From NCBI GenBank assembly GCA_964035575.1, contig OZ037836.1, forward strand, positions 1,240,001-1,304,000: a stretch of DNA of 64,000 nt, in the 5' to 3' direction. The notes under the pieces were generated by a model, which was not told the DNA's origin, made no database searches, and saw only the letters and a list, made by a program, of their open reading frames with translations. Both the position numbers and the translations under genes were made by a program. Positions within the stretch are counted from its first letter, which is position 1; each line of letters begins with the position of its first letter. Below are positions 8,561-61,794 of this stretch, piece by piece. This DNA comes from Rhynchopus sp. YZ270_cl-10. Lineage: Eukaryota.

Positions 8561-9124
8561 GGAATGGATATAGGAAGTTTATATCGCGAACACCATAAGA
8601 TGAACCTAAGCCTCAGCCATGTTTAGCCATCTAAAAAAGCGGGCTAAGGTGGGGGTCATGAAAGGCACAAGGTAATGATATAGGGAAGGGTGTATATTGT
8701 CTAACAAGCCAAGTTTTTTTTTTGAGAATAGGAAAAAGAAAAAAAAAAAAGACAAAAACAAACTTAGAGAGATGTAGGGGAAGGAACCCGAAGCACATCT
8801 GTTCAAGCTTAAAATAGGAGAAGTCGGGAAGGGTGTGGCTAGAGAAAAAAAAATGAAAGAGAGAACGTCTGTGTCCAAAAAACACAGCGCTCGGCAGTGG
8901 GAACCAGCTGTTGTAAGAACAGCATCGGCTCGTTTCCGAACCCGCACGCCCACCCTCCCTTTGGTCCCTTTGTATGTGTTTTATTTTGCTTTTTGTTTGT
9001 TTGTTACTGTTATGGCGACGATCAGTGTCGGTACTCAATATTGCCCGAAAGGCAGAGAGACAGTTAGTTACCGCATATTTTTATTTGCTAGGTTTTGAAG
9101 TGCTGTAGCTGTCCACACACACAA

Positions 9125-12100
9125 TCACGCCTTCTTGCTCTCCATCAACAGCATGAGTTCGCGTTTCTTCTCTTCAACCTTCTGTGCGAGCAATACTTTA
9201 GCGGAGGCTACAACATTTTGTGCGACACCACGTGTGAAAAATCTGTGAGAGAGCGAGAGAGAGATATTCAGTGGATCAACAAGTTACAAATTTACATTAA
9301 ATAATGGTTATGGTTGTTGATGCAGGCATCTCCAACTGACTGTACGATGTCAGCCATCCGGATGCAAGTCCCAGTACCCTGCAGTTAACAGAATGTGTAA
9401 ATAAGACACTGTACACAAAAAAGATCTCTCATGACAACAAGAGATAAATAAACTTTGTCTAAAAAAAGCTATTTACAGATTTCTCTGGATTTGAACGGCA
9501 TTTGGCCTGTTTATCATTTTTGTAGTTTACACAAAAAATTGCTCCCAAAATGTGCTATATATTTTTGTACAGAGACAACTTTAAAAGAACCTGAGCACAA
9601 CAGGAACACTGCAAACGCGAGGGGGATTTTTTTTTGCATACTTTGCGGCTGGGTTTTCTCGTCCATTTTTGGACCCCCCTTGCTTGACCCTCAAGAAGAG
9701 AGTTTCAGGGTCGGCATTCGCGATTGACTGCACAGTTTTGTAGCCAGCACTGAACAGACAGCGTCCTCGCCCAGCCTGAACACCGGCGATCTCGGCGAGA
9801 TGTGCACAGTCGGCCTTCATTCCACAGCCAAGCCGTTTAACATACGACTGGATGGTCACCTGGAGGGACGTCCACCCGTTGCTCTCTGTGAAGTTCACCA
9901 TCATATTGCAGAAGATCGCTGCGTTGAACTGCAACTTTTGGATTTGGCCCTGTAAGGAAGGAAAGAGGGATTACGCTCCACATCCCACAACGTGTATTTC
10001 AACACGTTAATTGGGTTTTTTTTTTTTTTTTTTTTTTTTTTTGAAAAAAATGGGAGGGAAATACAAAATCTTAAGAAGAACCTCAAAGATGCATGTCTCT
10101 TGACGTCCTTTATGGAGAAAGGAAATAGCAAATATAGATTGTATCGAGGGGGTGATGCCATACCCTTTCACAAGAAAACTTCTTAGAAACCACTGCGACG
10201 GGCATTTCTGAGAGCAGGTCGGAGAGGATCAGCGCACACCAGAAGCGGCGGCACTTGTATTCATCTCTGCAGCCTTTGTTGCGTTGTTTGTCGCTTTGCT
10301 CGCATTTGACGAGGACATAGGGCTCGCTTATGCCGATCATTGTCGCTATCTGTCGTGGTATCGCCTTCATATTTGCTAGCAGATGCGCTAAGGTACGCCA
10401 GTTGATGCTCCACGTCTCTGCATCCTTGATAGGTGTCAGGTAGTACAGCATGTGAAGGTCGTGGCCGAGGATGACACCGTTGTCTTGCATGTGCTTCAAC
10501 TCCTCCTTCAGGAGACGTGCCTCATTAAGGGTAAACCCTGATTTAAAGACCGAAGCACCAAAAGGGGAGATCTGCAGTGGCATTGCTTCAGGGCGGTCTT
10601 CGTGGCTGTCGTCTGCACGGCCAACGATTCTTTCTCCGATCATTGCATAGAGTTTTTGTTGGTGTGCGTCCTTGTATGCGAGGACAGAGTCGTTGTCTTC
10701 GGCCACGTGGTCTTGCTGGGGGTAGAGCATGCGCTCTGCATAGGAGATGAGCTCGGAGTAGCATTTCGCAACACCGGTTGCCATGGCGTCGAGGACCATG
10801 CCCTCAATGGAGGCTGGCGCGTTGCTTTTGCTTGTGAGTGGTTCGATCTCGGACCGCATGAGCTCCTGGGAGCGGTGGAAGTCGTTGTCTCTGCACAGCA
10901 GGTACGCCTCACCATTAGAGTCAAACCCAGCCCGACCTGCACGACCGCACATCTGAAGGTATTTGGATTTGTCAAGGTGGCTGATCCCGACGTACGGATA
11001 CCGTATGATCACCCGCCGTGCAGGAAGGTTGACCCCCGCCGCAAGCGTGCTGGTGCAGCACAGCACGCAGATGACCTTGCGTTTGTACGCTTCTTCAATG
11101 AGGACGCGCTCCTCCCCCAGCATGCCTGCATGATGATACGCAATGCCCGCACGCAGGAAGACCTCAAAGTCGGCATCAAGACTGCCACTCACAACACCCT
11201 TCATCTCCGTCGCCAGCGCTTCGCGTGCATATTCATTGTGGGTGCGCGCCTCTTCAGAGACAAGACCTGCAAGCACCTTACACATCCGCTGGCACTCCTT
11301 CTTGCTCGGACAAAACACAAGACAACACCCAGACGGAACAACCTCGTTCACCAGAAGCGCAACCTTCTTGTCGTCGTGCTTAGTAAGAGGCAACGTCCGA
11401 GCGGTTTCGCCATCACCTTTGAGAACCATAGTACACTCCTTAGTGTCCTTAAGAAGAAAGCACTCAAGGGTAACAGGACGGAAGTCTGACACATAAAGCT
11501 CTGCATCCAGCCACCGTGCCAGCAGCGGAAGGTTTGGTAGGGTTGCACTCATGCCAACAATCTGGCAGGCAGGGATGGTGACGCAGATCTTGGTCAGAAG
11601 CATTTCGAGGATAGGTCCACGGCCAGGCTCGCCTATCATATGCAGCTCGTCTGCCACGACGCAGCCAATCTCCTTAGTGCGGCCCTCTGCAGCCATTTTG
11701 TTTACGAGAGAGTTTGCCTTTTCGATGGTGCAGATGGCGATAAAGCGTTTCCCCGCAATGGGCACCTGGCTCAACTCCCCTGCGCAGGCTGTGAGCTCAA
11801 AGCCCAGCGCCTTTGTGTAGGGTTCGAGGGCTGCCATCTTTTCGTCTACAAGCGCAACAAAAGGCATCACCAAAATCCCCGAGCGCTGTGCGGCCACTGC
11901 ACGAAGGAGAAGCACCTCGGCCACAAGACTCTTCCCGCCACTGGTGGGGAGTGAGAAGACGAGGTTCCCGCCACGGCACACCTTGGGCAGGGCCAGCACC
12001 TCCACCTGCCAGTCGTACATACGTGTGATGCCACGCTTTGCAAAGATCTGCCGCACGGATTCGGGGAACCCTGCCAACGGGTCTGCTGGGTCTGCCCCAG

Positions 12101-13814
12101 GCGGCACCACAGGCACTGTTGCCACCTCTGTGGACAGCATTGCGGGTGGTAGTGGTGGTGGTTGTGGTGTTGTGCTGTCGGCAGGTGAGGACGAGGATGA
12201 GGGTGCAGGTGTCACAGGGGTCACAGGGTTGACAAAGAGCTGTGGGACACGCTTTCCAACCACAGGGCGCACCCAGGTGGTGGGTGGGCTCGTCTGTTGT
12301 AGGGCGCTGTCGTCCATGGTGGCAGGGGAGTGGGTCTGGACGTCGCTTGCTGGCGCCTGCGGCTGTTGTGGTTGTGGCTGTGGCGGTTGCTGTGGCTGTA
12401 GTTGGTATGGTTGTGGTTGTGGCTGTGGCTGTGGCACTGCAGCAGGGACAGGGACAACCTTTGTGACAAATGGGACAGGCTTGGCGGAGGGCTTCTTCTT
12501 TACGTCGCACCGCACGTCGACTGCAGGTGGGAGTACCGGCTGCCGCACGCACGCCTCTGCCTTGGGCGATCGCGATGCACTGCGCGACCCAGCACTGGAG
12601 CTGGGGTTGCGGAAGGGGACAGGCTTGCGTCGTGCTGCAGCACTGGCGCTGGCTGCGGTAGTGGCACTGCCACCACCACTGCTGCAGGCACGCTCCTCCT
12701 TGTCCTGCTCCTTGTCCTCCCTCCTCGGCGGGGGAGCACTTCTATTGACAAAGGGAACAGGCTTCGCACCCTTCGGCCGTGCAGGGTCAGGGCTGGCGCC
12801 GCTCTGCACAAAAGGGACCGGCACCTTGCGGATCTCGGGGGAGGTTCGTGTACGTGGGGGCACACCCACACCTTCGGGGCTGGGGTACGCACCCATGCCC
12901 ATCCCTTCGGGGCTGGTGTGCACACCTGCGCCTGCACCTGCGCATTCGGGGCTGTACGCAGCTGCACCCATACTCCCCACACCTTCAGGGGTAACGTGTG
13001 CTCCCACACCGCCCACACTGCCTACTCGTTCAGAACTGTACGTAGTTGCACCCATGCCGACACCTTCAGGACTGTGGGTAACGTATGTGTTCATACCACC
13101 GACACCTTCAGGACTGTTGTACGCACCCATACCCACACCCATGCCCATACCCATACCCAGATACTCGAGGTGTGCATCTGGGAGCACCACAGCAGTGTTC
13201 ACATCAACAAGCGACATGTCTGCCTCAGGCACATGCTGCTGTGTGAGATACTGACCAGGAGCCGCAGCAAGCAGTGCGTTGCTGTTGGCAAGCTCGTCGG
13301 CAGCACAGGGCATCTCCTGCGAGAGCATCGCGAGGGGCGGCGTCTTGCCTGCCTCCATGTTCTCCTCTTCCTCCACGTCCTCCGCTGCCCATGTGGTGTG
13401 GGCCTTTTGTGGCGACACGCCTTCGTCGAAAATAGCACCGTCGTTGACGGGGACGGCGTACCCATGAGACTCTGCCGGCTCTTCGTAGAAAGGATAGGGC
13501 TGCTGCCTTGGGGGTGACAGGTGTGGCGAGAGAGAGAGAGACTGCTGCAGAGGTTGCTCTATGTGCTGTGGTGCAACACCTGCCAGGCTGTCCATGATGC
13601 CACCACTGCTGTGCACCTTCGTGGCGCCCATGCCCATGGTGCTCACACCTGCAGGCATGCCAGGTGCATTGCGCCCAAACAGAAGCGGCACTGCGGGTGC
13701 ACGCTGGTCTCGCACAGCCTTCACACGCTTTGCAGGCGGTGCTGCGGTGACTGCGCTCCCCGCACGCCGTCTCTTCAAGGTAAAGTCGGACGGCATGCCG
13801 TTCACACATGACAT
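9125..13814 (-). CDS. HELQ: HELQ/POLQ-type Ski2-like DNA helicase with no polymerase domain; 3 exons: 13814-10164, 9949-9642, 9242-9125
   Basis: Motifs LPTSGGKSLVAE, VADELHM, GMSAT, CTSTLAAGVNLPARRVII, QMCGRAGRAGFD; GT-AG introns (AGG|GTATGG...TTACAG|GGC and AA|GTATGC...CACAG|ATT) keep frame and give an HhH region plus the C-terminus VAQNVVASAKVLLAQKVEEKKREL...KKA*. Confidence 0.85.
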
Positions 13815-14189
13815 CTCAACACAACATGAGAATCACAACGTGATGTTATTGCTGCAGGCTCCGACTCACTCACGATGCCAATCCCAATGAAAGAACAAAG
13901 TACGCTCCAGCCAACAGCAGAAGATATGAAAAAGAGAAAAAAAGTCCCGCGGGTTCACCACGACTGTTAGATGGGGGAGGGGAGGGTTGTTCGTTGAGGC
14001 ACACCCAAAATTACGACCACCTTTGCAGCACCCACCCCCCATAAAACCCCAGCACAGAAAGCCCCGCAAACTTCGCCAACTGTATGTTCAGGTCTCCAAT
14101 ACCCCCCACCCCACCACATCACCCCATTTCCCCCCACAGCGCCATTCACGGTGTCAGGGGGAAACCCCGCGAACCCCACGGTGCATTTG

Positions 14190-18748: not shown

Positions 18749-19832
18749 TCAACCCTTTTTAACCCTCTTGCCAGGACGCACAACAGCGGTGTCCCTCTTC
18801 ACTCGTGGCGTCTGTTCCTCCTCACCTTCATCCTCGCTGCACGCAGGCGAACCCTTGCTCTCTGCGAACCCTGCTTCCCTTTCCTCAGAGGGCTCTGTGT
18901 CTGCATGAAGACGCTTCCACCTCACCCTTCTTTCTGCACGGTTGCGGGGTCGGGCACGTTGTCAGTCTCGCATCTCAGACCGTGAATCGCGTTTGTCGGT
19001 AAACCCACTCCTTTCGCAAGCAACCTCCTCACAACCAGAGCGTCCTTGCTCAACCCTGAGGCATCGATTGTTGTTAACTCGAAGCAGTATAAGAAGAAGT
19101 CCTTCCCAATACTCCTGACCCCGCTCAACGCAGACAGGCCATCGACGACTTGCAAGCACGAGCCATCCCCAAAGAAGCCCTCCCCAACGGTAACGACACT
19201 CCTCAACCCCGAAAGACAAACTCTCTTCAACGACGAGCAGCCGTAAAGAAAGTGGTCACCTATTTCGGTGACATTGCTCAACCCCGAGAGGTCCACGGAC
19301 GTCAAATGCTTGCAGTAGCTAAGAAAATACCCCTCAATCACAGTCACGCGGCGAAACACAGAGAGGTCAACCGTTCGCAATGCAGAGTCGGCAAAAAATC
19401 CTTGGCCTATTTTAGTGACACTGCCGAACCCCGACAGGTTGATGCTCTCCAATCGCCCGACGCTGTTGATGAAGTGATCTCCAATCACAGTCACATTGCA
19501 CAACCCTGAAAGGTCAAGCTCTGTCAACTCCGTGCACCAGTTCAGGAAGCCATTCCCTATTTCGGTGACAACCGACACAGCACTAAGGTCAAGTCGCGTT
19601 AACTCACTGACTTGCAAGAACTCATCAGGAATCTCAGTCGCAACCTCCGCCTCCAAAAGCAAACGCGCAACGTCCGGATTCTTCACAGTCGCCAACCTCT
19701 CTTTTGTCAGGTCTGTCTCGCCCAATGCGTGAAGTGCTGCAATGGCAGCAAACTTCGTTGTCCTCACGAGCATAATCGTGTCCCCAGCACTCAGCTCCTT
19801 GATGCCCTCCTCTTCACGCAGCACCTCCCCTC
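18749..19832 (-). pseudogene. UBL-LRR subfamily A copy, 5'-truncated and frameshifted near its 3' end
   Basis: Matches 2443..3663 up to 19832, where RT sequence takes over; a 1-nt deletion near 18920 gives an early stop (ORF 18922..19824). Confidence 0.85.
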
Positions 19833-22471
19833 GTCAACCTTGTCTTTGCCCATAGCCGATATACCGCCGACATCACGGAAATTGGTCGGTGGTCGAGTGG
19901 TTGTGGGTCCTCCACCTTGGCGATCATGCTCACGGTCGCGTGGAGGAGAGCTTCTGGCCATATGCCCGTCTCTTCTACTTGGTTGAGGATTGATGCCAGC
20001 CTGTCGAAGATCCCCGTTGGGAGAAGCGCAAGTTCTTCTGGGTGCCAGCCGTCTGTGCTGGGGGCCTTCCCCTTCGGCATGCTCTCGGCCACGGCTTTCA
20101 GCATCCTTCCGGTGAGGGGTTCTACGTGCATCGGCCGTTGAGGTATGTGTGTGCCAAACCTTTCCTCGAACGCTTCCCACGTGGGTGTGTCACTCAGGGT
20201 GTTGTGCTTTTGGAGTATGGGAAGCCATGCCTCACGCAACCACGTGTCCATGTCCTCCACATTCGCGGTCTCTTCCGTCCCGCGCTTCATCGTGTTGCAC
20301 CGCACTTTGGCTCCGTTGAGGCGCTTGTAGATAAGCCCTGGTGTGGTGTGCCATTGCGTGCGTATCATACGATATCTTTGCGTGGCCCTGTCCCTCTCCA
20401 GGTTCTTTCTGGCAGTTTCGAGTCTCTGGTGCAGGCGCTGTATCAGCTCCAGTGTCGTGCTGGCCTGCGGCTCCTCCTCTGGGGTAGCGTCGAGAATGCT
20501 CACCAGCCCTGCCTTCGCTTTGTCCCACGCCTTGCGTGCGCTGGGTGTGAGGGCTCCTTTGGTGCGTAGAGTGTTGCCGACCTCTGTTAGTCTGCGGATC
20601 GTCTTCCGGATGCGCGTCATCTTGAGGGTCTCTCCTGCGTCGCCTTCGCGAGACTGTCTGCTGCACAGCCAGGTGCGTCGAAGTTTGGGTGGTCGGCCTT
20701 TGCGGAAACATGCTGCTGAGTTGTCGTCTCCCTGCCGTGCCCAGAAGTTGGTCGCATCCTCATTCCATGCTTTCCACTTGTCCTCTACCAATGTGCTTGT
20801 GTGCCATTGTGCTTTGGAACCATCGCAGATCTCTTCAGCCTCCTTTTCCAGGTCTGCCTTCGTTTTCTTCCTGCTCAGTTCATCCTGTTGTAGCATAGGG
20901 GCCCTTTCCTGCTTGAGCACACGCTGCCTGAACGTCATATTCTCAAATGTCGCGTCCAGGGGGATGTGTGAAGGTATTCCGGCCGTCCCCGTTTTGCACC
21001 CTGCCAGCGCAAGCACCGCAATCTGGTTGGCCAGGATGATGTCAATTCGTGAGCACACACTTTTGGCTTCAGACTTTGTGCTCTTACCGATGTGGGTGTG
21101 CTCTGGCTCTTGGTTGGCCCAGCCCGCGGCTCGTTCGGCACAGTCCGTCCATCGTTCTGAGCTGATGGCTAGGGATATTGCTTCGCTTGAGCTGGGTTCT
21201 GGGTGGCTGTTGCAATCCCCGAGGATAATCGCTGGTACGTCCCCTATCTCTGCTTCTGCAAATACATCCGATAGGAAGCTCTCGCGCTCTTGCTTTGCTT
21301 GCGGGGAGTTGCCGACTTTCGCGTATATCACGAATAGGTGTAGAAAATGGTTCCCTGCCCCATGTGCCACCTTTGCGTGCAGGTAACGCTTTGAGTCCCA
21401 GAGTCTCTTTGCTCGTTCAGTATCTCTCCTGACCACACTTGCTGGTATGCCTCGTTTCACCATTAGGCCCACCCCCTTGTGTTCTCCGTAGCTCTGTTGT
21501 ATTGCGTTTGGAAGTAACTTTACTGGGCACCCCCAGAGACCTGTCCAGCCTTGTTCATACAGCGTTCGGGAAGCTTGGGCCTGTTTCTTCTGTGTGAGCC
21601 GGGTCTCCTGCAGTGCGACTATGTCGTTGTCCCAACTCCACACCTCCTCCTGGTGAGCATTCATTGAGGTGATGTTGGCAGTACGTATGGACAGGTTTGG
21701 AGTGGCCCGGGCAGCGCGGCGTCGCTTTCTCTCCGTCTTGGTACGTTTCCGTGAGCGAGACACTGCGATATTCGTGTCCAGGTTCTCCAGCGTGACACAG
21801 CGGTTGCCCTCTGCCTGCGTCGTTGCAATCAGCGACAACAGCCCCTCGGTTGCTTTGAGGCGGTCGAAGTGCTCGGGCCTGTACGTGAGCACAACTGGGT
21901 TCGATGTAGGTGGTCCGCCGACGTGGCTAAACCGTTTCGCTCTGGCATCCAGTACCCAGATGGCCCTGTCGAGTATGCTTGCCGCAGTCTGTAGCTCACG
22001 TTCTCCACCGTACGTTCCTTGCATTCTCATTTTGGCTAGGTGTTGCGTGTAGGTGGAAGGTTCGTTTGCCTCAGGAGAGTAGCTGTCAGCATAGAGGTCA
22101 CTGTCGTCGTTTTGCAGTACGTCCACCACCCGTTGTCGCAGTGAGTTCGTTGTCCACCCCTCGCTCTGCTCAGCTATGGCAGAGAATAGGCAGTCCCCGT
22201 CTGGCGCTACTGCTATCCTTGTAGAGTTGATACTGCGGGCTGTTGCGTCCAACCACTCCTTGTGGTCGGTGATGGCCCTCAGTGGGTTCACGGGATTGTC
22301 GTTGTTTTTGGGGTAGGCGCTCCTACCTATCCCCGGTTCTATGTGCGATTCTAAGTACGTATCTAATCTAGTGGGGGGGGTGAGGTGGGGGAGTGGAGGG
22401 GTTGGGTCTAGAATCAAACGAACAGGAGATCGTTGATCTCGTCCGCAATCGCCTTCGACTCCTTCTTCCAC
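19833..22471 (-). CDS. Retrotransposon ORF2: OTU-like cysteine protease + APE endonuclease + start of reverse transcriptase (truncated)
   Basis: OTU: VAPDGDCLFSAI...YGGERELQTAA...EHFDRL; APE: TANITS, VALQETRL, ILGDCN, SRIDIIL, SHIPL; RT: KAPSTDGW, DHRPISVMSAVYRLW; no ATG before the OTU core. Confidence 0.9.
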
Positions 22472-23946
22472 CGCTCCATCTCCTCCGTCCCCTCCGTCAC
22501 CTTTCCCGCCCCCTTTCCCATCTTTCCGCCGTCCTTCGACTTGCCCTTTTTGCGCTGGGGGGGGCCCGACCCGAAGATGTCGTCCATTGTGCTTCCCTTT
22601 CCCGCGCCGGACGACTTTGACCCCTTTTGCTTGTTGGGGGTGGTTGGTGGCGACAGTGTCTCGGTCGCGGTTTTCGGCTTTACCGTCTCGTTGGCCTTCA
22701 CATCACAGTCCTTCGTGTCCTCCGTGGTGCTTTGTTGTTGTTGGAGCGGAGAGGGTGGGTGAGCCGGTTCCGCGTTGGTGGTAGGCTGGAGTAGCCTGAG
22801 GAGGTGGGCCAGGTGCGCGTCCGTCGCCTCCTGTCGTGCCTCCGCTGCACACTGCCGAGCCACCACCGTCGCCAGCGCCGCGTTCATCTCCTCCTGAGCT
22901 TTGTTGTTACTGATAACTGCAGAGAGGATTTGCTCCCGCTGAGCTTCCGCGTTTGTCGCCAGTTCTTCCGCTCTGGTGGCGTGGCTGTCCATCTTGGACA
23001 GTTGGAGCACTTGACGCTCTAGGAGCGCTTCAATGCCCTTGCCCATTTGTAGAAGAGGGGTGGTGATAGAGGTGAGGTCGGCCGGTGTTGCGTTGTGGTT
23101 CTGATGCTGTTGGGGAAGTTGGTGCTGAACTACGCGCTGCATCCATGCCAGCTCCAGCTTCTGTCCCTGTTCGAACAGCTTTTTGCCTCTGTCCGCGCCG
23201 TACTCTGCTACAAATTCTTGGCTGGTGTATTTTACCTTCCTGTTTCTCTCTGTGGGGTCAGGTACCCGTGTAGGAAGCTGTTGGTGGGTGTCTGCTGTGG
23301 TGGTGACGGTGCTGGTATCTCTTGCTACTGCAGGGAGGATTGACACCACTAGGCTCTGCCACTTGACGCTGCTGTGCGGTGGCTGCGTCTCTGCGCGCAC
23401 CACGAGGGTCTTTTCCCCCGTTCTGCCCTTGCTGAGCAGCGTCACCACCCGCGCCCCCTCCCACTTCATCGCCTTCAGTGCCGCGATGCAGTCCTGCTTC
23501 GTTGCGGGGGGAGGAACCGGCCTGAGGTCGAAGAGCTGGGTGGTGGTGTGCGTTGTGGTGCTGTCGGGTATCTCGAACGTGAATGTGGGGGCGTCATCCA
23601 TCGCCTCCGGGGCACCACCGCTGCTACCTCCCCTTAGCCTACCCAGCTCCCACACGTTGCAGTGCGTCCTGCACATCCGGAGCGACTCCTTGTCGCTCAT
23701 GTCCCTCCCGTTGATGGTAAGGCGGTGCACGTCCCTGCGTCCACCTGTCTTCGCGCGCACTGCCGCCTTCAGGTCAGCCACCGAGTCCGTGTCGCTGACG
23801 TCCACTGTCACTGTCTTTCCAGTCAGCGTTCGCACAAAAATCTGCCTTTTTACCTCTTCATTTTCTTCTTCTTTTTGTTCCGAGTCTTTGCCGCAGTCCT
23901 CTGCGTTGCCCGGGGTCACCTCGTGGAGGTGCTCGGTAAAAACCCC
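22414..23946 (-). CDS. Retrotransposon ORF1 with N-terminal ubiquitin-like domain ending RLRGG and a coiled coil
   Basis: RQIFVRTLTGKTVTVDV...LKAAVRAKTG...LGRLRGG (compare ubiquitin MQIFVKTLTGKTITLEV...LRLRGG); heptad Ala/Gln/Glu-rich region; basic C-terminus; start codon undefined. Confidence 0.8.
   Translation of the reverse strand, partial: GVFTEHLHEVTPGNAEDCGKDSEQKEEENEEVKRQIFVRTLTGKTVTVDVSDTDSVADLKAAVRAKTGGRRDVHRLTINGRDMSDKESLRMCRTHCNVWELGRLRGGSSGGAPEAMDDAPTFTFEIPDSTTTHTTTQLFDLRPVPPPATKQDCIAALKAMKWEGARVVTLLSKGRTGEKTLVVRAETQPPHSSVKWQSLVVSILPAVARDTSTVTTTADTHQQLPTRVPDPTERNRKVKYTSQEFVAEYGADRGKKLFEQGQKLELAWMQRVVQHQLPQQHQNHNATPADLTSITTPLLQMGKGIEALLERQVLQLSKMDSHATRAEELATNAEAQREQILSAVISNNKAQEEMNAALATVVARQCAAEARQEATDAHLAHLLRLLQPTTNAEPAHPPSPLQQQQSTTEDTKDCDVKANETVKPKTATETLSPPTTPNKQKGSKSSGAGKGSTMDDIFGSGPPQRKKGKSKDGGKMGKGAGKVTEGTEEMERWKKESKAIADEINDLLFV
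23880..23946 (-). ncRNA. HDV-like self-cleaving ribozyme at the retrotransposon 5' end
   Basis: GGGGTT(P1) TTTA CCGAG(P2) C ACC(P3) TCCACGA(L3) GGT(P3') GACCCC(P1') GG(P1.1) GCAA CGCAG AGGA CTGCG(P4) GCAAA(J4/2, catalytic C) GA CTCGG(P2'); the first G coincides with the insertion junction. Confidence 0.85.
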
Positions 23947-24231
23947 ACTCTCCAACTTCTCGGCTGTGATGTCTGTCACACCCAACGCATGAAGCTCTGC
24001 AATGGCTTCGTACTTCTGCGACTTCTTCGTGAGGATGATTGTGTCACCAGCACTCAGCTGCGTCATGTCCGCTCCTTCTCCCATCGGTTCGCCTCCGAAA
24101 CTCATGCAAAAGCCGTCTTCAGGCAACCCCATTGCAGTCGCCACCTTCCGCCGCATCACCGCAAGTGTATCATCCTCACCCAGCTCGACCGTATGCTTCA
24201 CTCCGTTCAACCCCTTGATAGTCAAATCCAT
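23947..24231 (-). pseudogene. 5' fragment (UBL domain) of a subfamily B UBL-LRR gene interrupted by the retrotransposon
   Basis: MDLTIKGLNGVKHTVELGEDD...AEKLES followed by element sequence; the rest of the gene is absent. Confidence 0.85.
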
Positions 24232-24950: not shown

Positions 24951-25790
24951 TCATTGTGCGTGTCTCCGTCGCTTCTGGCTTTGCTCGGGGGATTCGTCTC
25001 TGCTTCGTTTCGGAAGTGCTTCAACCACAAGCTTACTCAGCTTCTTGTCGTTCCTCACTTCGTTGGACACCACACTGCTGCAGCCGGAAAGGTAAATGCT
25101 CGTCAACGAAGTGCAGTTCGCAGCAAAGTTCGTAGTATTATTGCAAGTCAAACCAATCGACGTCACATTGCTGAGTGGTGATAAATCCAGGGTGGTTAAG
25201 CTGCTGGACTTCGCAAGGAACCACGCGCCAACCTGTGTAACGTTGCTGAGTGGTGACACATCCAGCGTCGTTAAGCTGCTGCAGTTGTAAAGGAAGCCCG
25301 CACCGACCCGCGTCACATTGATCAACCCAGAGAGGTCGATACTTGTCAACGAGGTGCAGTGGTGTAGGAAGCAACCTGCAATGCGAGTCACAATGGACTC
25401 AGCACTGAGATCAAGTCTCGTCAACGAAGTGCGTGACAAGAAGTAACTCGGAATGACAGTCGCAACCTCCGCCTGTAGAAGCAAACACGCCACCTCAGGA
25501 TCTCTCACACTCTTCAACTTCTCGGCTGTGATGTCGGTCACACCCAACGCATGAAGCTCTGCAATGGCTTCTTGCTTCTGCGTCTTCGTGAGGATGATTG
25601 TGTCACCAGCACTCAGCTGCGTCATGTCCGCTCCTTCTCCCATCGGTTCGTCTCCGAAACTCATGCAAAAGCTGTCTTCAGGCAACCCCATTGCAGTCGC
25701 CACCTTCCGCCGCAAGCCCTCCACTGTGTCATCTTCACCCACCTCGACTGTGTGCTGATTCGCTCTGAAATCCTCGAAGTGCACGTCCAT
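24951..25790 (-). CDS. UBL-LRR protein, subfamily B, 5 LRRs, 279 aa
   Basis: Start MDVHFEDF from paralog alignment; tail PKRSRDESPEQSQKRRRHAQ. Confidence 0.85.
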   Translation of the reverse strand: MDVHFEDFRANQHTVEVGEDDTVEGLRRKVATAMGLPEDSFCMSFGDEPMGEGADMTQLSAGDTIILTKTQKQEAIAELHALGVTDITAEKLKSVRDPEVACLLLQAEVATVIPSYFLSRTSLTRLDLSAESIVTRIAGCFLHHCTSLTSIDLSGLINVTRVGAGFLYNCSSLTTLDVSPLSNVTQVGAWFLAKSSSLTTLDLSPLSNVTSIGLTCNNTTNFAANCTSLTSIYLSGCSSVVSNEVRNDKKLSKLVVEALPKRSRDESPEQSQKRRRHAQ

Positions 25791-26459: not shown

Positions 26460-26651
26460 AAACAACAGCGCACGTCAGTTGTCTCACGTACAGTGTATAC
26501 ACCCTGAAAACGTAACCCCTTCCCTCTGGCACAGACCCCACCTTGGGCAGATGGTCTGCCCTACTGCCTCTTCTGCACCGTAGCTGAGTGCCACGGTGAC
26601 AGCTTGTACCCACCTGCGAAAGAATGTTCGCAAGGTCCCTTCTTCTACTAA
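26460..26651. repeat. Diverged fragment of the 203-bp repeat of the retroposon at 46462-49125
   Basis: TGGTCTGCCCTACTGCCTCTTCTGCACCGTAGCTGAGTGCCACGG...CCCTTCTTCTACTAA matches 48392-48490. Confidence 0.8.
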
Positions 26652-28140
26652 GGGAAAACAAACTTTTCGTCTGCGTGCGCGTCGGGACGTCCCCCAGAAA
26701 AACCCAGGCAGGCATGCAAAAAAAAGTTTGTTTTAATGGTGTGATTTTCCTAAAAATTAGGTGTAAATTGGGTACTTCTTGGGTCCTTCTTGGGTATAGT
26801 GATTTTCCTTAGGGCACTTCCTTAAGGAAAACGTGATCTTTTTCCCGAGCTTTCCCTGTGGTTAGTAGCCTTGTTTTCGCAAAAATTTTCTCAAAATCCG
26901 GGATTGGCACCCAGTACCCAGTACCCAGTACCCAGTACCCAGTACCCAGTACCCAGTACCCAGTACCCAGTACCCAGTACCCAGTACCCAGTACCCAGTA
27001 CCCAGTACCCAGTACCCAGTACCCAGTACCCAGTACCCAGTACCCAGTACCCAGTACCCAGTACCCAGTACCCAGTACCCAGTACCCAGTACCCAGTACC
27101 CAGTACCCAGTACCCAGTACCCAGTACCCAGTACCCAGTACCCAGTACCCAGTACCCAGTACCCAGTACCCAGTACCCAGTACCCAGTACCCAGTACCCA
27201 GTACCCAGTACCCAGTACCCAGTACCCAGTACCCAGTACCCAGTACCCAGTACCCAGTACCCAGTACCCAGTACCCAGTACCCAGTACCCAGTACCCAGT
27301 ACCCAGTACCCAGTACCCAGTACCCAGTACCCAGTACCCAGTACCCAGTACCCAGTACCCAGTACCCAGTACCCAGTACCCAGTACCCAGTACCCAGTAC
27401 CCAGTACCCAGTACCCAGTACCCAGTACCCAGTACCCAGTACCCAGTACCCAGTACCCAGTACCCAGTACCCAGTACCCAGTACCCAGTACCCAGTACCC
27501 AGTACCCAGTACCCAGTACCCAGTACCCAGTACCCAGTACCCAGTACCCAGTACCCAGTACCCAGTACCCAGTACCCAGTACCCAGTACCCAGTACCCAG
27601 TACCAAAGGGCCGATGGAGGGTTCCGAGACGGCGATAGCCTGCGACACTATGTCATGGGAAGGTGGGATACTAGCTTGCGCCGCAGGCGCACGGTACGCT
27701 ACTTTTATTGTTTCGGCGTATCCTTTTTTCTCACTCTTCGTTGGGTTCCACGAGCTCCGCCCGTCAAATGATGGGGTGTAAAATTCGCATCTACGCAAAC
27801 TGCCCCACGTTCATTTTGTACTTTTCCTTCAGAAGTCAAGTACTGACCATATTTTGCACACAGAACCTGAAAATGGCCTGTAAAAACTGACACATGCATT
27901 TTAGGTCAAAAATACTCATTTCTGAGCGCAAAGTGACCCCATCACAGCACGTACAGGCTCCGGTGCACCGAAATCAAAAAATTTTTTTTTTGATTTTTTG
28001 TGGGGAAAAATTTCTGGGGAAATTTTCTGGCCACAAAAAACCACCAAAAAGATGTACACAAAATAATTTTAGCACCCCCAAAAAAAAAAGGTGTAAAAAA
28101 GGTCCTTCTAAGGTCCTTCTAAGGTATACCACTACCCTTG
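26652..28140. mobile_element. Probable PIF/Harbinger-type non-autonomous element related to 38507-39465, carrying (CCCAGTA)n; right end not resolved
   Basis: Begins TAA|GGGAAAACAAACTTTTCG exactly where similarity to 48481-48490 stops; shares AAAAACC(C/T)AGGCAGGCA, the 25-nt hairpin motif and (inverted) 27890-27950 with 38507-39465. Confidence 0.5.
26910..27602. repeat. (CCCAGTA)n satellite, 99 units
   Basis: Perfect 7-bp tandem array. Confidence 0.98.
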
Positions 28141-30146: not shown

Positions 30147-31721
30147 AACCCCCCTCCCAACTATTGTTTACATCCAGGTATTGTTTACATGGCAGCGTCC
30201 GCGAAAGACCCCCCCCTAAAGCTAACATCCATGCTTATTGGTATTTCACTAATTAAAATTTTGGTATTTTATAAGATTTTTTTTTACAATGAACTCAGAG
30301 TTAAGTTTCTGAGCTCATTAAAAAAAAAATCGGTGAAAAATTCCGAGTAGGTATTAATTTAGATAGGAAAAGCTATGTCAACAGCTATGTGTCCCCTTAT
30401 TTTACCTGTAAATACTAAGGATATACAAGGAAATCCTCACAAACACCCATATAACCACCCATAGAACAACACAACAGGGGGAAATGTAATCAGCAGCCAA
30501 AGCATTCGCTCAGGAGCTGAAAACCCGGCCTTTCCGAGGCCTAAAAAACTTCGCCGAGCTGCAGGTGTATGCAGGGGTCCACTGGCAGGGGGGCAAAGGG
30601 TGGGGCGCGAGGAGCTGGATGCGCGAGGTGTGTAGCTCGAAGCATATGTCCCTCCATATGCAGAAGACAACCACCAGGAGAAAAGGGGTGTCCGCCGTTT
30701 ACTACTCCTGTAGTTGCATCAGCGACACCCTCAGGACAGTGACAGCGAGACGGAGGAGGAAGAGGAGGAACAGGCGGACAATTGTCTGTAACTCTTGGAG
30801 AGACTCATCACGGAGGTCAATAGGGTCACTCAAAAAAGGGGGTTTTCTGCGAGAAAGTCGACGTCGCCGCAGACGACCCGGAGCGTGAAGCTCTTTCGCG
30901 CTCTATTTAGAGTGTTCGGAGGGGGCGACAAGCCTCCACCCCCCTTTCCTCCCCCCCCTTTTTGATAATGGGTTTAGAGACAGATATTAGTGAATTCCTT
31001 CCTATATCCTTAGTATTTACAGGTAAAATAAGGGGACACATAGCTGCTGACATAGCTTTTCCTATCTAAATTAATACCTACTCGGAATTTTTCACCGATT
31101 TTTTTTTTAATGAGCTCAGAAACTTAACTCTGAGTTCATTGTAAAAAAAAATCTTATAAAATACCAAAATTTTAATTAGTGAAATACCAATAAGCATGGA
31201 TGTTAGCTTTAGGGGGGGGTCTTTCGCGGACGCTCCCACATATAATTATTCACAGCTATTATTTACATCCAATTACTATTTACATTCGAATTATTTATTT
31301 ACACCCCCTTTTTTTTTGCCGGTTTTTGGTGACGGGGTGCGGATTCGTGACCAAAAACACAATTTTTTGGAATTTCCGGAATCTGTCCAGAAAATGGTGG
31401 GGTCGATGTTGAAAATTGGACAATTTTTTGACCACTTAAATTTTGGAAAATATGAGCCCGGTCACTAGGTGGGGCCCATTTTCGGCCAAAAATTTTCACA
31501 AAATCCGAGTTTGTAAAATTGACCCTACACCCACATCAATTTCAATACTATACCTCACTTCACCTTCGGTTACCCTACAGGGGAGGTGTGGAAAATGTAA
31601 ACAATACATGAGTGATAATTATTTACATGTACTATTTACATTTAAATTATTTACATGTATTATTTACATGCACGAATACTATTTACATAAAAATATGTAA
31701 ACAATAGCTGTGAGGGGGGTT
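30147..31721. mobile_element. TIR element with TA flanks and TATTTACAT subterminal repeats, host to a nested element
   Basis: TA|AACCCCCCTCCCAACTATTGTTTACAT ... ATGTAAACAATAGCTGTGAGGGGGGTT|TA. Confidence 0.8.
30191..31237. mobile_element. Nested element with ~235-bp near-perfect TIRs and 4-bp TSD ACAT
   Basis: ACAT|GGCAGCGTCCGCGAAAGACC...(30191-30425) is the reverse complement of about 31003-31237 ...CTTTCGCGGACGCTCCC|ACAT; ~560-bp GC-richer spacer. Confidence 0.9.
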
Positions 31722-34700
31722 TAGTTGTTGATGCAGGCACCTCCGACTGACCCACGTACGATGCCAGCCATCCGGATGAAAGCACAAAAAAAAAAAAAAA
31801 AAAAAATGGGTAAATTGCGATAACACACACGTATACTTTTTTGTGTGCGTGTTATCGCAATTTACTAAAGAAATAATAACAGGGGGAAGAAACTCTCGTG
31901 CACACACATAAAAAAGTTGAAAGACGAGAAAAAAAAAATTAACTGGATGCACAAAAAGGGGGGGAGAACTGTTGGAGGGAGGGGATGGGAAAGAGAAGAA
32001 GAACTTATAAGATGACCCTAAGCCTCTCTGTGCTGAAGTCACCTTTGGACACAATCGTTATTGCACAGCATCAGCCTGACTGTGTAAAGCATTGCTGAGG
32101 CAGACGTCTCAGACTGACCCCGGACACCATCCCCAGACGATAGCACAACACAGAATACTCTGATAGGCAAGTAAAAGGGGGGGAAAAATTGGAATTTTTT
32201 TTTTTCCGTTGATTGCTCAATTACCCCTGTTGGAGGGGTGGTGATTGGCGATCGCATTGGGGGAACCATTTCTCCTTTAAGCCAAACGTTGTTTGTGAGA
32301 TCCAAACTATTTCATATACCGTAATCGTACTAATGTTCGTAAAAAAAAAAGGTCGAACTTCCAGAAAAATCTGAAAAGGTCAACAAACATATTTACGGTC
32401 GATATTTTTTTACGATTACGGTACTTCTTATACAACACCGCTGGTGATCAAGGATGCATCTAAGACTCGACAGGCAACCTCTGTCCCCTCTAACTGCTGT
32501 TGAACAGTCAGGACTTTAATATACATAAAAACATATCTTCAAGGACGTCCCCGTGCTCTGTAAACACACACACACACACACACCCTTTTTGAAATGTGGT
32601 TGTATTAGTGTAGACACCCGAGGATGCGCTCCAATATGTAAATCTGGGGCTTTTTTTTTTTTTGATAAATTTTTGGAGTAGTGTACACGGTGGAGTCTAC
32701 CCGGGGGGGAGTTACTCTTTGGGGGGGACTTAAAGGGGGACTCAAAGAGTCCCCCTAGGGGGACTATGTAGTCCACCTAGGGGGACTATAGTCCCCCTAG
32801 GTGGACTCTTTTGGTGGGTTCTTGTGGGTTGTGGGGGCTGGTGCTGGCAGGTATGTACACACCAGGGGGGTGGTGAGGGTCCCAGATGGGGCCCGGGGAG
32901 GTAAAAGGTCATGTTGTGCATATCATTGCACAGTTTATACAGTGCAAACTGTTGTTTGCCATTAGATGCGATACAATGACAGAGTCTTGTTGCTTATTTC
33001 CTTTCAGTCCTCAGTTGTTAACGCCTGATGTGGTTTGCATGTTTGAAATGTATAGCTATGAGAGCAGCTGCGCACGGGAGACGTGCCGAGAGAAGGAGCC
33101 GTCGCCATACTGGATAAGGCGACGGCCTACAACCATCCAGACCCACCCCAACTCCAGGGATAGACCCTCGGTCGCTGTCGTGATGATGGAGTCCCTCTAC
33201 GGCAGCAGCCCCTCCTGGGCCTCCCCCCACCAGCACCTTCATCATGTGCGCCAGGCAGGCACCTACATCGCCATATATACAGTCGCTCTCCGCACTCCAC
33301 TCCAACATACTCAGGTCGATGCACCTGGGTGGCTACACCACAGATGATGCGAGCGGTGTTAAAGGACGCTAGCGACCACCCCGCCTGGCAGAAGACCCCC
33401 GAGAAGACCGCACGCAAATGGCTTGCGAAAGCACATCGTGGATACCTCCGTGACTGCAGCACGCGATTGCAAGAACACCCGCCTGCTGATGCGACTGCTC
33501 GTGGAGGTGCACCCCGACACCGACCTCCGTCGCGTATCGGGCTTCGACGGCGTGCTGAGGATGAGGCCGCAGACAGCCTCACGCGAGAGGGTGGTGTGGC
33601 TGAGCCGGAGCACAGCCTCAAGGCTCGTGAAGCAGCATTGCTGCATCACGGGAGGGTGATGATCGCCTCACCCAAATATTTTGGGCTTGTCGTACGCCCC
33701 GTCCAGGAACGCAGCGCATGCGCCGCCAGAAGTCGCTCCTCATGCGGGCCCAAAGACCACCCAACCGCGGACTTTGTCGCCGCACTTAACAACAGCGGCC
33801 TCGCGTGCGCAACGCAGACCGTGCCGAGCACTGGGAAGACCTGGTGCGTTAAGTTAACATCATGACACCCGTCCCCAAAGACGCATGTGTCATCAAGGGA
33901 AGCCGGTGATGGCTTGCCAGGCCCAGCCTGGTCACCGATTCAGAAGCAGGAAGAGGGCGGGCCCGGCCACACCCGACAGCGCCAAGCCTGAGGCGAAACG
34001 GCAATGCAAGCCGGAAAAAAGGGGGCAAAAGAAATAGTAGGATCGGTAGGTAAGTAAAGTTGCTTCGTTCATTGCACAAACAAAATAGCAGCAACAGGAC
34101 CACTGCAGCCGAGGGAGAGGAGTCGAGGGAGGAGCTGCAGAGGCAGAACCTCGACCTTCTGCGACAGCTGGTGGAACTGAAGCAGCAGATAGCGTGACGG
34201 CACAGCTCACCGTCACCACCAACCAAGACACTGTGATGACAGCAAAGACCCCTTCTCAAGAGGTCTCTGCCACCTCCACAACTGGGATACACTCCACGCT
34301 CCCTAACCCCGGACCCAAACCCCTCAAGTGTCTCTCCGACAACATCAACGGATTGACACAAACGACACGAGCAGAAGCTGACGTGCCGTCTGCAGGACAC
34401 GGCGTTTGATGCAGGGGTGCAGGTTGTGCTTGCCCGCCCTCGCTTGGCCGACATCAAGTGTCCTGCTCAGTACAGTGTAACGCATACGGGAGACAACGGG
34501 TTACTGTCGCGTTGTGGAACGCTCTGCATCTATAGTAGCAGGCGTGGGCATGTTGGCGGCTTCGACACAGAAACCTACGAGCCTGTCTTCTCATTTGATT
34601 GATGCGGACAATTATGTGTACGGTGCGCCTGCCATCTCTCAGTGCAAGACACGCTGCTACCTGCCTTGTGGGGATTGCCTTCTCAAGGTTGCACTTCCGG

Positions 34701-36139
34701 GTGGGGAGGTGGTCCGCAAAGTCGACTGCGCTTCGTGGACCTTGTTCTCCTGTGGCAGTGTTGTTGTCTCGTATGGCAAAGACGGCGTCTCTGTGTATGA
34801 CGAAGACCTGACGTTGCTCTGCTCTCTCTCGCACGAAGAGTGTGTTACTCTACTGCTCGCCCAAAAAGAGTACGACGTTGTCTGCCTTAAGGAACTCAAA
34901 GCGAGCCAGACAGGCGACATTGGCTTCGACGTTTACATTATGTATGATACAAACGCATGCGTATCCAAAAGCGTGCGAAGGGGGCGACGGCATCGGGAGG
35001 CGGCATCCACGTCTGCACCACACGCACATACAAACACATCTTCACTTCTCCAGAGAGCAGCGTGACGGAGACTCGCCTTCGAAGTGGAAGGTGTGCGATT
35101 CTGCAATATGCACAGGCCAAGTGCGGCAGGCCTGCACAAAAATGACACACTACGTGCCGACGGCAACGTTTCAGAACTGCCCACACACAAGGGAAGGTGG
35201 TGGTTGCGGGGACGTGAACGCGCACCACCGATCCTGGGCACACTGCACTACACGACGCTATGCCACTGCACAAAAAAGGGAAAGACATGACTGACCCTCG
35301 TCGTACCGCCCGATCTCCCTTACCGGCAGTGTGTCGAAGGTGATGGAGAAACTGGTGGGGCGACGCATGCACCAACTGATGAGCCAGCCAGACTCTTCAG
35401 TGAACAACCTCCACTCAGCTTAGGACGAGCCACCCTCTTGCTCCACCGGAAGGCAGCAAAGGTGATCACCGGTGCGACTACATGTCGCACGGTCAGGACG
35501 TGTTGTGGGAGGCACCGCAGATCACAGCGTACCACCAACGACTACGAGAAGTTTGTAGGACTGCCCGGCTCGCTTGGGCATGCTGTGTTTAACAAACTAA
35601 ACCAGGCATTTTCATAGTTCATGAAATGCTGGAGACATACATCTTAGGTACGTACGTAATACGCGGCAAATAGGTAGCAAAAATAATAAAATACATAGTG
35701 AACTGAGGACTGAAAGGAAATAAGCAACAAGACTCTGTCATTGTATCGCATCTAATGACAAACAACAGTTTGCACTGTATAAACTGTGCAATGATATGCA
35801 TACCATGACCTTTTACCTCCCCGGGCCCCATCTGGGACCCTCACCACCCCCCTGGTGTGTACATACCTGTCAGCACCAGCCCCCACAACCCACAAGAACC
35901 CACCAAAAGAGTCCACCTAGGCATACATGGTAAGCGAACAAAAAATTCGCTTTATTCGCTTTTGGTTCGCTTTTTTATTCGCTTTATTCGCCGGCGAATA
36001 AAGCGAATAAAGCGAACCAAAAGCGAACGAAAAAGCGAACAAAAAGCGAATAAAAAGCAACGTATTTTTTGTCAAGTCTAGTGTGTCGAGTCTAGTCCCC
36101 CGAGATCCCCCAATACCCGCAACGACGCCAAAATAAGGC

Positions 36140-37013
36140 TACTGTACTGTACTGTACTGTACTGTACTGTACTGTACTGTACTGTACTGTACTGTACTGT
36201 ACTGTACTGTACTGTACTGTACTGTACTGTACTGTACTGTACTGTGCTGTACTGTACTGTACTGTACTGTACTGTACTGTACTGTACTGTACTGTACTGT
36301 ACTGTACTGTACTGTACTGTACTGTACTGTACTGTACTGTACTGTACTGTACTGTACTGTACTGTACTGTACTGTACTGTACTGTACTGTACTGTACTGT
36401 ACTGTACTGTACTGTACTGTACTGTACTGTACTGTACTGTACTGTACTGTACTGTACTGTACTGTACTGTACTGTACTGTACTGTACTGTACTGTACTGT
36501 ACTGTACTGTACTGTACTGTACTGTACTGTACTGTACTGTACTGTACTGTACTGTACTGTACTGTACTGTACTGTACTGTACTGTACTGTACTGTACTGT
36601 ACTGTACTGTACTGTACTGTACTGTACTGTACTGTACTGTACTGTACTGTACTGTACTGTACTGTACTGTACTGTACTGTACTGTACTGTACTGTACTGT
36701 ACTGTACTGTACTGTACTGTACTGTACTGTACTGTACTGTACTGTACTGTACTGTACTGTACTGTACTGTACTGTACTGTACTGTACTGTACTGTACTGT
36801 ACTGTACTGTACTGTACTGTACTGTACTGTACTGTACTGTACTGTACTGTACTGTACTGTACTGTACTGTACTGTACTGTACTGTACTGTACTGTACTGT
36901 ACTGTACTGTACTGTACTGTACTGTACTGTACTGTACTGTACTGTACTGTACTGTACTGTACTGTACTGTACTGTACTGTACTGTACTGTACTGTACTGT
37001 ACTGTACTGTACT
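36140..37013. repeat. (CTGTA)n microsatellite, ~174 units
   Basis: Perfect apart from one CTGTG variant near 36245. Confidence 0.98.
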
Positions 37014-37022
37014 CCCAATCCC

Positions 37023-37355
37023 CTGTGTATACTGTGTATACTGTGTATACTGTGTATACTGTGTATACTGTGTATACTGTGTATACTGTGTATACTGTGT
37101 ATACTGTGTATACTGTGTATACTGTGTATACTGTGTATACTGTGTATACTGTGTATACTGTGTATACTGTGTATACTGTGTATACTGTGTATACTGTGTA
37201 TACTGTGTATACTGTGTATACTGTGTATACTGTGTATACTGTGTATACTGTGTATACTGTGTATACTGTGTATACTGTGTATACTGTGTATACTGTGTAT
37301 ACTGTGTATACTGTGTATACTGTGTATACTGTGTATACTGTGTATACTGTGTATA
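37023..37355. repeat. (CTGTGTATA)n array, 37 units
   Basis: Perfect 9-bp tandem array. Confidence 0.98.
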
Positions 37356-37913
37356 CTCAGTACTCAGCACCCACTAGCTCTCAGTAAGCTCTCACAGCCT
37401 GTTACGTGTCCCACGGAGACGATCATAGATCACCCAAAGGCGAATAAAAGGCGAATAAAGCGAATAAAAAAGCGAACCAAAAGCGAATAAAGCGAATAAA
37501 GCGAATAAAAAAGCGAACCAAAAGCGAATAAAGCGAACTTTTTATTCGCTTTTTTGGAAAAGCGAATAAAGCGAATTTTTTGTTCGCTTACCATGTATGC
37601 CTAGGGGGACTATAGTCCCCCTAGGTGGACTACATAGTCCCCCTAGGGGGACTCTATAGTCCCCCTAGGGGGACTATGGAGTCCCCCTAATCCGACACCC
37701 CAAAAGAGTAACTCCCCCCCGGGTAGACTCCACCGTGTAGTTGCCTCGGTTGTGTTGCCACAGGTGTGCAATCTCCACTGTTTTTTTCTGTTCCTACAAA
37801 ATGGACACTGGAAATCACTTTGTTGTGCAAAGTCTGGTTCCAACTTTTTCCTTTATTAAAAAGTACCAGTTCTTTGACAAGCCGCGAACCTCTACAAAAA
37901 AGCCCTGGAAAGC

Positions 37914-54309: not shown

Positions 54310-54368
54310 TTGTTTGTTGTGGTTTTGTGTTGTGATCTCTGTGTGTGGTGGGGTGTGGAGGACAACAA

Positions 54369-56023: not shown

Positions 56024-56082
56024 GTCTTTGTTGTGGTTTTGTGTTCTGATCTCTGTGTGTGGTGGGGTGTGGAGGACAACAA

Positions 56083-61751: not shown

Positions 61752-61794
61752 GTCTTTGTTGTGGTTTTGTGTTCTGATCTCTGTGTGTGGTGGT

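Follow-up and report, generated by a model that had tools for sequence, protein, structure and literature searches.

The proteins of long interspersed nuclear elements (LINEs) are described as unprocessed in the accessible text of PMC3894237, and the part of PMC2836005 that was available only speculates on a role for the OTU, Ulp1 and Josephin domains of mobile elements. Among described elements, L1Tc and ingi offer an instructive parallel: they lack an ORF1, carry a 2A peptide and have a hepatitis delta virus (HDV)-like ribozyme at base 1 (accessible portions of PMC3708506, PMC4035085, PMC12278014 and PMC7563717). The element considered here lies in a 64-kb stretch of DNA from Rhynchopus sp. 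YZ270_cl-10 (contig OZ037836.1; the whole stretch is referred to as the window), where it is read on the minus strand with its first base at 23946. It begins with an HDV-like fold, its first open reading frame (ORF1) has a ubiquitin leader ending in RLRGG, and its second (ORF2) opens with an OTU cysteine protease domain ahead of APE endonuclease and reverse transcriptase (RT) regions. These parts are conserved across copies, the copies are targeted in frame to one codon position of a repeated host gene, and OTU domains and 2A-like peptides are exchanged among the relatives. From the sequence, we lean towards the prediction that ORF1 loses its leader through cleavage behind RLRGG, for which the element's OTU is the likeliest enzyme, and that this OTU does the job of 2A in sister elements.

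Like L1Tc and ingi, this element combines APE and RT, has a euglenozoan-type host and starts at its first base with an HDV-like ribozyme; a device for N-terminal processing, putative here, and a hot spot in a protein-coding multigene family, namely the retrotransposon hot spot (RHS) genes in the former case, are further shared traits. Unlike them, it has a separate ORF1 of 510 codons with its own stop in both subtypes, the ingi clade having a single ORF (accessible text of PMC3708506), and it carries an OTU and a ubiquitin leader instead of 2A. The comparison with L1Tc/ingi that had been drawn from the window sequence therefore stands as an analogy and not as clade membership. Insertions into RHS genes give, in the accounts accessible in part, truncated or frameshifted products, whereas the junction of the ubiquitin-leader family is in frame.

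Deubiquitinase-type domains at the N-terminus of ORF2p have been noted in a Symbiodinium necroappetens LINE (OTU) and in Dualen/RandI (Josephin); the portion of that account that was available gives the OTU one sentence and makes no mention of a ubiquitin leader, a GG site, a ribozyme or target specificity (PMC13405545). Ubiquitin- or SUMO-type cysteine proteases are likewise fused to mobile-element enzymes in NeSL and Utopia-1_TSP (Ulp1; PMC4640811), in Ginger1 and in Helitrons (OTU/Ulp1; PMC2836005), and NeSL and Utopia share target specificity with the present family (PMC4640811). Unlike it, they are restriction-like endonuclease (RLE)-type elements or DNA transposons, and no element-encoded ubiquitin substrate is described for them in the parts of these sources that could be consulted. 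Viral systems are reminiscent in other ways. In cytopathic pestiviruses, ubiquitin inserts without a normal start, even N-terminally truncated ones, serve as processing signals that set an exact downstream N-terminus; there, recent host captures are cut by cellular hydrolases, whereas the leader described here is diverged, fixed in the family and placed beside a candidate cognate protease (PMC8310069, consulted in part). The OTU-fold enzymes PRO of turnip yellow mosaic virus (TYMV) and PLP2 of equine arteritis virus (EAV) both process the polyprotein at RLIGG-like sites and remove host ubiquitin (accessible text of PMC5695851 and PMC3744425). In contrast to these RNA virus enzymes, the OTU of the element, whose activity is predicted, is similar in sequence to cellular OTUD3 and OTU1.

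Outside most subscription journals, supplements and Repbase, the literature accessible in full or in part showed neither a ubiquitin leader on any LINE nor GG sites next to the OTUs of LINEs, and these diplonemid elements were not described in it. The Diplonema papillatum genome paper defers the identification of mobile elements, in the text available, and the accessible part of PMC5203782 does not mention OTU, ubiquitin or protease. The original prediction knew of no described element with a ubiquitin and OTU pair; this holds for the ubiquitin leader, whereas a LINE whose ORF2 bears an OTU has been mentioned in print before, together with a 2A-like peptide (PMC13405545, seen in part). The element is a genuine, conserved and novel form of APE-type LINE, and new are its site-specific in-frame junctions, the alternation of OTU and 2A-like peptides with discordant sister pairs, and GG/G sites before the OTU of other lineages.

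Pfam identified the ubiquitin domain on ORF1 (PF00240, E = 2.9e-9), with 23 of 56 aligned residues identical to ubiquitin (~41%). The domain ends in RLRGG, the sole LxGG across the two ORFs of the family, and has Arg (AGG) at the Met1 position. In the alignment it is 74 rather than 76 residues long, has Thr in place of Ile44 and shows Arg, Ala and Arg at the positions of Lys6, Lys29 and Lys48, with no Lys near 63; judged by these features, the leader is a diverged ubiquitin variant and not host ubiquitin. The domain, its RLRGG end and its Arg had all been called correctly. The proposal that ORF1 starts at ubiquitin did not hold, as the frame is open from ribozyme base 1, 33 codons ahead of ubiquitin, and further upstream to a host ATG at 24231. 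From element base 1 through the ribozyme and ubiquitin, the ORF1 frame alone is open and the other two frames are closed. The first in-frame AUGs of ORF1 occur inside ubiquitin (23700 and 23676), followed by one at 23601, eight codons past the GG.

Beyond the window, other copies were represented by protein records (stored proteins, numbered P) and short contigs rather than a whole genome, so that 3′ ends and duplications are not directly visible; metagenome loci are numbered L. Two ORF1 subtypes were recovered (n = 2), which are 59% identical overall and share 72 of 74 residues in the ubiquitin domain. The codon of Arg1 is AGG or AGA depending on the subtype, and that of the final Gly is GGT or GGA; since the synonymous codons differ between subtypes, both residues are regarded as fixed. 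An estimated 6 silent versus 2 replacement changes separate the two domains (P = 0.004 if neutral), three of the silent changes having been seen base by base; the other three, with both replacements, follow from the protein alignment combined with the numbers of differences counted on contigs. The two subtypes had similar sequencing depth in runs X1 and X3, and in X2 and X4 their depths differed by no more than about twofold. The concern that other copies might lack the domain is contradicted by the RLRGG-ended domain in both subtypes.

Two simpler origins of the leader were considered and rejected. A local chimera with the ubiquitin-like (UBL) domain of the host target gene is at odds with the presence of the domain in other copies and with its lack of likeness to the host UBL (best E = 0.23, with a comparable GG in 0 of 120 host paralogs). 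A recent ATG-to-AGG mutation of the window copy is at odds with the AGA at the Met1 codon of the other subtype. For the remainder of ORF1, neither Pfam nor the Atlas gave a match, and the homolog search recovered the same family only (1 match among 7991 scored candidates). The predicted structure (mean pLDDT 39) places a helix in the body at residues 309-402 of P0031.

At the element start, the predicted HDV-like fold was borne out by an Rfam match to HDV-F-prausnitzii at 23878-23946 on the minus strand (37.2 bits, which falls short of the gathering score, 44; E = 1e-4) and by a descriptor covering P1, P2, P3, L3, P1.1, P4 and the catalytic C, which was written by hand after inspection of the sequence. 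This descriptor had a single match in the 64 kb on both strands, exactly at 23946, and none in 20 of 20 Markov shuffles; all of its elements could be mapped, as expected from a putative nested double pseudoknot. The same search found no HDV fold in the seven metagenome loci (L001-L007). An RNA cut by a 5′ ribozyme is uncapped.

In ORF2, the OTU scored above the Pfam cut-off (PF02338, E = 4.6e-8), with OTUD3 and OTU1 as the best solved-structure matches. Its motifs D-G-D-C (22201-22190) and H-F-D (21871-21863) place the putative catalytic Cys, His and Asp, and the Cys and His are intact in all seven stored family proteins that span both, in line with the conservation asked for in the original prediction. 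APE was matched by PF03372 (E = 7e-7). The window gave no Pfam RT match because the copy breaks off at ~19830-19833, where it is joined to a host ubiquitin-like and leucine-rich repeat (Ub-LRR) paralog via a 3-nt microhomology; the order OTU-APE-RT anticipated for ORF2 is thus upheld in the window for the OTU and APE, and the full RT is present in other copies only (P0001, RVT_1 E = 5e-22; copies 99% identical). Complete ORF2 proteins of other copies comprise OTU, APE, RT and a zinc finger over 1753 aa. The open frame of ORF2 runs from 22702 to 19817 on the minus strand, i.e., past the break at 19830; no contig bridging the 19833 junction was seen, and either a real deletion or an assembly join is possible there. 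A 2A-like peptide was not matched in P0001, P0007 or P0013. Pfam found no RNase H on P0001, though its C-terminus aligns with the RNase H region of relatives; by eye, residues ~1596-1740 of P0001, which lie outside the window, resemble an RNase H-like domain whose three acidic catalytic residues are apparently lost relative to P0038.

The window, the second subtype and the distant locus L001 all place ORF2 in the -1 frame, with an overlap at the stop of ORF1; for the second subtype this frame relation gave 0 mismatches, versus 10 for +1. The overlap reads UUGA in the window and GUGA in L001, which would fit stop-start reinitiation, weakly so given that any UGA yields such an overlap. In SART1 the stop-start junction is UAAUG (PMC3894237, accessible part). 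Programmed -1 frameshifting was considered beside reinitiation as a route to ORF2: G-GGA-AAG runs are present in the Gly/Lys-rich tail of ORF1, and no canonical slippery site was seen by eye in L001.

The ORF2 cluster contains 19 members, of which 15 were listed; these are ~97-100% identical to the window copy where aligned and are spread over contigs of at least nine different lengths. The element is an APE-type non-LTR (long terminal repeat) retrotransposon, i.e., a LINE, with APE upstream of RT, and forms a dispersed multi-copy family that includes 5′-truncated copies (P0004 and P0009), both of which start within the OTU and sit at one and the same target position. All six protein junctions with a visible flank, probably representing five events, follow the motif E-[KR]-L-x-x; four are full-length 5′ junctions (window, P0013, P0010 and P0031) and two are 5′-truncated (P0009 and P0004, probably one event). 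Four of the six flanks are host Ub-LRR coding sequence in frame with the host gene, and those of P0031 and P0004 show an AT-rich stretch followed by a copy of the 19-nt target, an arrangement also met at contig ends. A contig junction at the same codon of a distant host paralog was present in two runs. The host family comprises at least 120 listed paralogs (2656 matches including other LRR proteins), and the target motif is matched in 84 of 120, followed by Val in 84/84. Loose contig ends at 23965 and 23956, together with the P0031 and P0004 flanks, are compatible with a 19-nt duplication after an AT-rich end, which is not tied to the element and is absent from the window; the junction arrangement fits such a duplication with tandem copies. 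Gene calling favours in-frame fusions, and the insertion phase was read mainly from called proteins. Taken together, the element is target-specific, with independent copies at one codon position of a repeated host gene.

Aside from this family, the 3′ part of a second LINE occupies 61855-64000 (minus strand). It belongs to the P0038 cluster (17 members), which is ~28% identical to the ubiquitin-leader family and has the order OTU-APE-RT-RNase H with an MVGG/G site. This copy ends just upstream of a Ub-LRR gene, and a 5′ junction within the same motif of the leader is suggested by the matching record P0194; the 5′ leader of this host family may thus be a target of the P0038 family as well. At least 12 tandem genes or fragments with Ub-like and BspA-type LRR domains occur in the window on the minus strand (605-3768, 18922-19832, 24954-25790 and 43969-61835), and the assembly holds more than 100 paralogs.

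To place the two ORF2 leader types, a set of relatives was assembled from the best 150 of 22,846 matches plus P0001 and P0002 (n = 152); the source organism was looked up for 20 of the 150 listed matches, and the names included Diplonema papillatum, D. ambulator, D. japonicum, Flectonema and Rhynchopus. Ahead of APE, an OTU is present in 10 of the 152, a 2A-like peptide in 20, and both in none. The 2A-like class derives from 21 pattern matches, one of which was dropped as an internal chance match, with GEA-type variants called by position and the PG-P ending. Most of the OTU-bearing relatives had themselves gone into the local OTU profile; Pfam, run on 24 proteins as an independent check, found the OTU in eight of the carriers, in three of them below cut-off. 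RT trees were computed from unnamed, diplonemid and other database relatives only, without a named clade reference RT, using 22 rows drawn from the 126 of 152 relatives with enough RT and, as a quick tree, 47 rows. A single clade of OTU carriers was rejected in the 22-row tree (approximately unbiased test, p-AU 0.0007). Sister pairs differing in leader, P0043 (OTU) with P0047 (2A) and P0042 (OTU) with P0035 (2A), each had 100/99 support and recurred in the 47-row tree. The suggested replacement of 2A by another processing module gains support insofar as OTU and 2A share a slot, never co-occur in the 152 and differ between sister pairs; the stand-in in relatives, however, is an OTU with a bare GG in ORF2, not ubiquitin.

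That bare site takes the form [LIVM]xGG/G, 36-60 residues ahead of the catalytic Cys, in four of the six other OTU lineages with a visible leader (P0038, P0196, P0114 and L001; none is visible in P0043 and P0058). The remaining two (P0049 and P0198) have a plain GG, which brings some form of GG to 6/6. The full motif occurred in 11 of 2123 background windows and in 1 of 50 leader windows of non-OTU proteins. No such site precedes the OTU in ORF2 of the ubiquitin-leader family (three of three versions). As the ubiquitin leader is seen only in this family, the OTU is probably the older of the two. The metagenome scan yielded seven loci from 229 matches, among which L001 (with OTU) and L005 are LINEs and L006 and L007 resemble bacterial nucleases; no relative was found among 40 pattern matches in viral contigs.

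L001 carries two tandem decayed LINE copies (333-1351 and 8833-9400), each with an xGG/G, a helix resembling a ubiquitin-interacting motif (UIM) and an OTU, Pfam recognising the UIM in the first; in the second copy, ORF1 lies ahead of ORF2, which is in the -1 frame. At L001 6508-7281, a leader frame before ORF1 has two H-x-x-N-G-N motifs (HATNGN and HSMNGN). The P0048 protein, from a Flectonema neradi record, has a Cys/His/Asp domain at residues 1-190, followed by LRGG/G and IRGG/G just before APE. A Josephin-like identity of this domain was an impression by eye with no Pfam match and was not counted; it may represent another type of protease occupying this slot.

Briefly, the proposed mechanism would begin with a host transcript that reads into the element and whose ribozyme would free the RNA at base 1. 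Because ORF1 has no AUG ahead of ubiquitin, ribosomes would enter at a non-AUG codon of cut RNA or at the host AUG of uncut RNA, giving ragged or host-fused N-termini. Cleavage after the GG, in which host deubiquitinases may share, would strip the upstream part and leave a single ORF1p starting with SSG. ORF2 would then be reached without an AUG, in the -1 frame, across the overlapping stop. The OTU would probably act both as polyprotein protease and as deubiquitinase, as in some RNA viruses; by analogy, a TYMV-like dual enzyme would reconcile cleavage by the element's own OTU with readings based on host deubiquitinases or counter-defence. Comparative support for processing by a protease in this clade is good, and sequence evidence makes a ubiquitin/OTU pair in this family plausible. 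More tentatively, and with a probability that we would put short of even, the clade swaps N-terminal modules (2A versus OTU with GG), and the family has evolved a private ubiquitin/protease pair; since its insertions would invariably be in frame within a host gene family, it could borrow the host promoter, cap and start codon and then trim off the host part at its own ubiquitin.

If correct, the retrotransposon would overcome AUG-less translation by means of a cleavable tag of its own, much as viruses use polyproteins, and the element suggests how an AUG-less, ribozyme-cut RNA could give a defined protein. It also exemplifies how an APE element can target a protein-coding gene family in frame and with codon precision, and its ubiquitin and protease may form an orthogonal pair. 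The enzyme, its candidate substrate and natural controls (sisters with 2A and sisters with GG sites) occur together in one clade, which makes the question testable with two small recombinant domains.

Several observations weigh against cleavage of the leader by the element's own OTU. Outside this family no ubiquitin leader was found; L001, the single OTU relative for which DNA was available, lacks ubiquitin in its ORF1, and the joint conservation of ubiquitin and OTU is seen within the family, ORF1 of other OTU families not being visible. The OTU is kept despite the missing GG site in ORF2, which fits a role other than self-processing equally well. Most of the 152 relatives lack an N-terminus, so that the exclusivity of OTU and 2A rests on about 30, and the two are not always alternatives, as the Symbiodinium ORF2p has both (PMC13405545, seen in part). 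A plain GG occurs often (in 26% of background windows and 48% of leader windows), and the GG motif itself was chosen post hoc, among OTU lineages that are related rather than independent; in one of the L001 copies it is parted from the OTU by a frameshift. The UIM that precedes the OTU in L001 (Pfam, above cut-off) points to host ubiquitin as the substrate. The AUG eight codons past the GG could yield nearly the same ORF1p uncut, and the near-identity of the ubiquitin DNA (197 nt with no listed difference, run X3) could reflect exchange between subtypes rather than selection.

Some of these points recur in the alternatives. It is conceivable, albeit unlikely, that host deubiquitinases cut the leader in a pestivirus-like manner and that the OTU is a separate counter-defence enzyme stripping ubiquitin from element proteins or chromatin. 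The OTU is indeed more widespread than the leader, adjoins a UIM in L001 and accompanies 2A in the Symbiodinium element (accessible text of PMC13405545), and viral ubiquitin fusions are cut by cellular hydrolases (PMC8310069, in the part available). The balance of the two products has to be considered as well: ORF1p is normally far more abundant than ORF2p, an excess that favours an abundant host enzyme. Ile44, however, is a main host recognition patch of ubiquitin, and the leader has Thr there and is two residues short; moreover, the bare GG sites next to the OTU in sister families offer a host enzyme no ubiquitin fold to recognise, which argues for a self-processing OTU in the clade. Improbable is a captured passenger that is no processing signal, with ORF1p starting at the AUG past the GG or retaining an uncleaved domain that serves as an adaptor. 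Both subtypes preserve the AUG at 23601, none lies in frame ahead of ubiquitin, and the subtype near-identity may stem from recombination; yet the frame is the only one open from base 1 through ubiquitin, the changes in the domain, partly deduced, are mostly silent, the exact RLRGG end is kept at only ~41% identity, and the domain was not borrowed from the UBL of the target gene. Least probable is that the freed variant acts as an effector, decoy or chain terminator against ubiquitin-based defence, with the trimming of ORF1 as a by-product. The replaced lysines and the retained conjugatable GG end would suit this role, but a fusion avoiding degradation explains the lysine loss equally well, loss of Ile44 would weaken handling by host E1 and E2, and the product would bear an N-terminal extension.

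Table 1. Features of the element copy and its flanks in the window, ordered along the minus strand.
Feature	Position	Strand	Remark
Host Ub-like and LRR gene, 5′ part; 95 codons from ATG, interrupted by the element, in the ORF1 frame	23947..24231	-	called as 605-aa fusion P0208
Target motif, codons E-K-L-E-S abutting the element; probable unit of a 19-nt target-site duplication	23947..23965	-	
HDV-like ribozyme fold from element base 1; catalytic C 23890; open in the ORF1 frame only	23880..23946	-	
ORF1 frame, 510 codons and stop; no in-frame AUG upstream of ubiquitin	22414..23946	-	
Three-codon upstream ORF, out of frame (AUG AAG AGG UAA), in acidic linker	23850..23861	-	
Ubiquitin-like domain, 74 aa; Arg at Met1 position; RLRGG end 23640-23626; predicted cut after 23626	23626..23847	-	Pfam, alignment
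In-frame AUG, 8 codons past GG, in both subtypes; rival ORF1p start	23599..23601	-	
ORF1 body: small alpha/beta stretch, then long coiled-coil-like predicted helix; low confidence	22789..23532	-	structure prediction
UUG of ORF2 (-1) frame overlapping ORF1 stop (UUGA); candidate stop-start junction	22414..22417	-	
ORF2 frame, open from 22702, without AUG before OTU; broken early in RT	19830..22702	-	
OTU cysteine protease domain; Cys 22192-22190, His 21871-21869, Asp 21865-21863	21850..22250	-	
APE endonuclease domain	20960..21685	-	
Reverse transcriptase, first motifs only, then break	19830..20068	-	
3′ part of a different host Ub-LRR paralog fused to the broken RT; GAG microhomology 19832-19830	18922..19832	-	

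The remainder of the window contains features of other kinds. Long simple repeats extend over 26911-27604 and 36100-37370, with a 7-nt unit (CCCAGTA) and arrays of the ACTGT/ACTGTGTAT type, and a tandem array with a period of ~203 bp lies at 47174-48750, part of its unit recurring at 26476-26651. Two inverted-repeat pairs of ~220-250 bp and 98% identity (30190-31238 and 32796-35921) are possibly the ends of DNA transposons or transposable elements of the miniature inverted-repeat kind (MITEs). An intact PolQ/HELQ-type helicase gene is encoded on the minus strand at 10113-13832.

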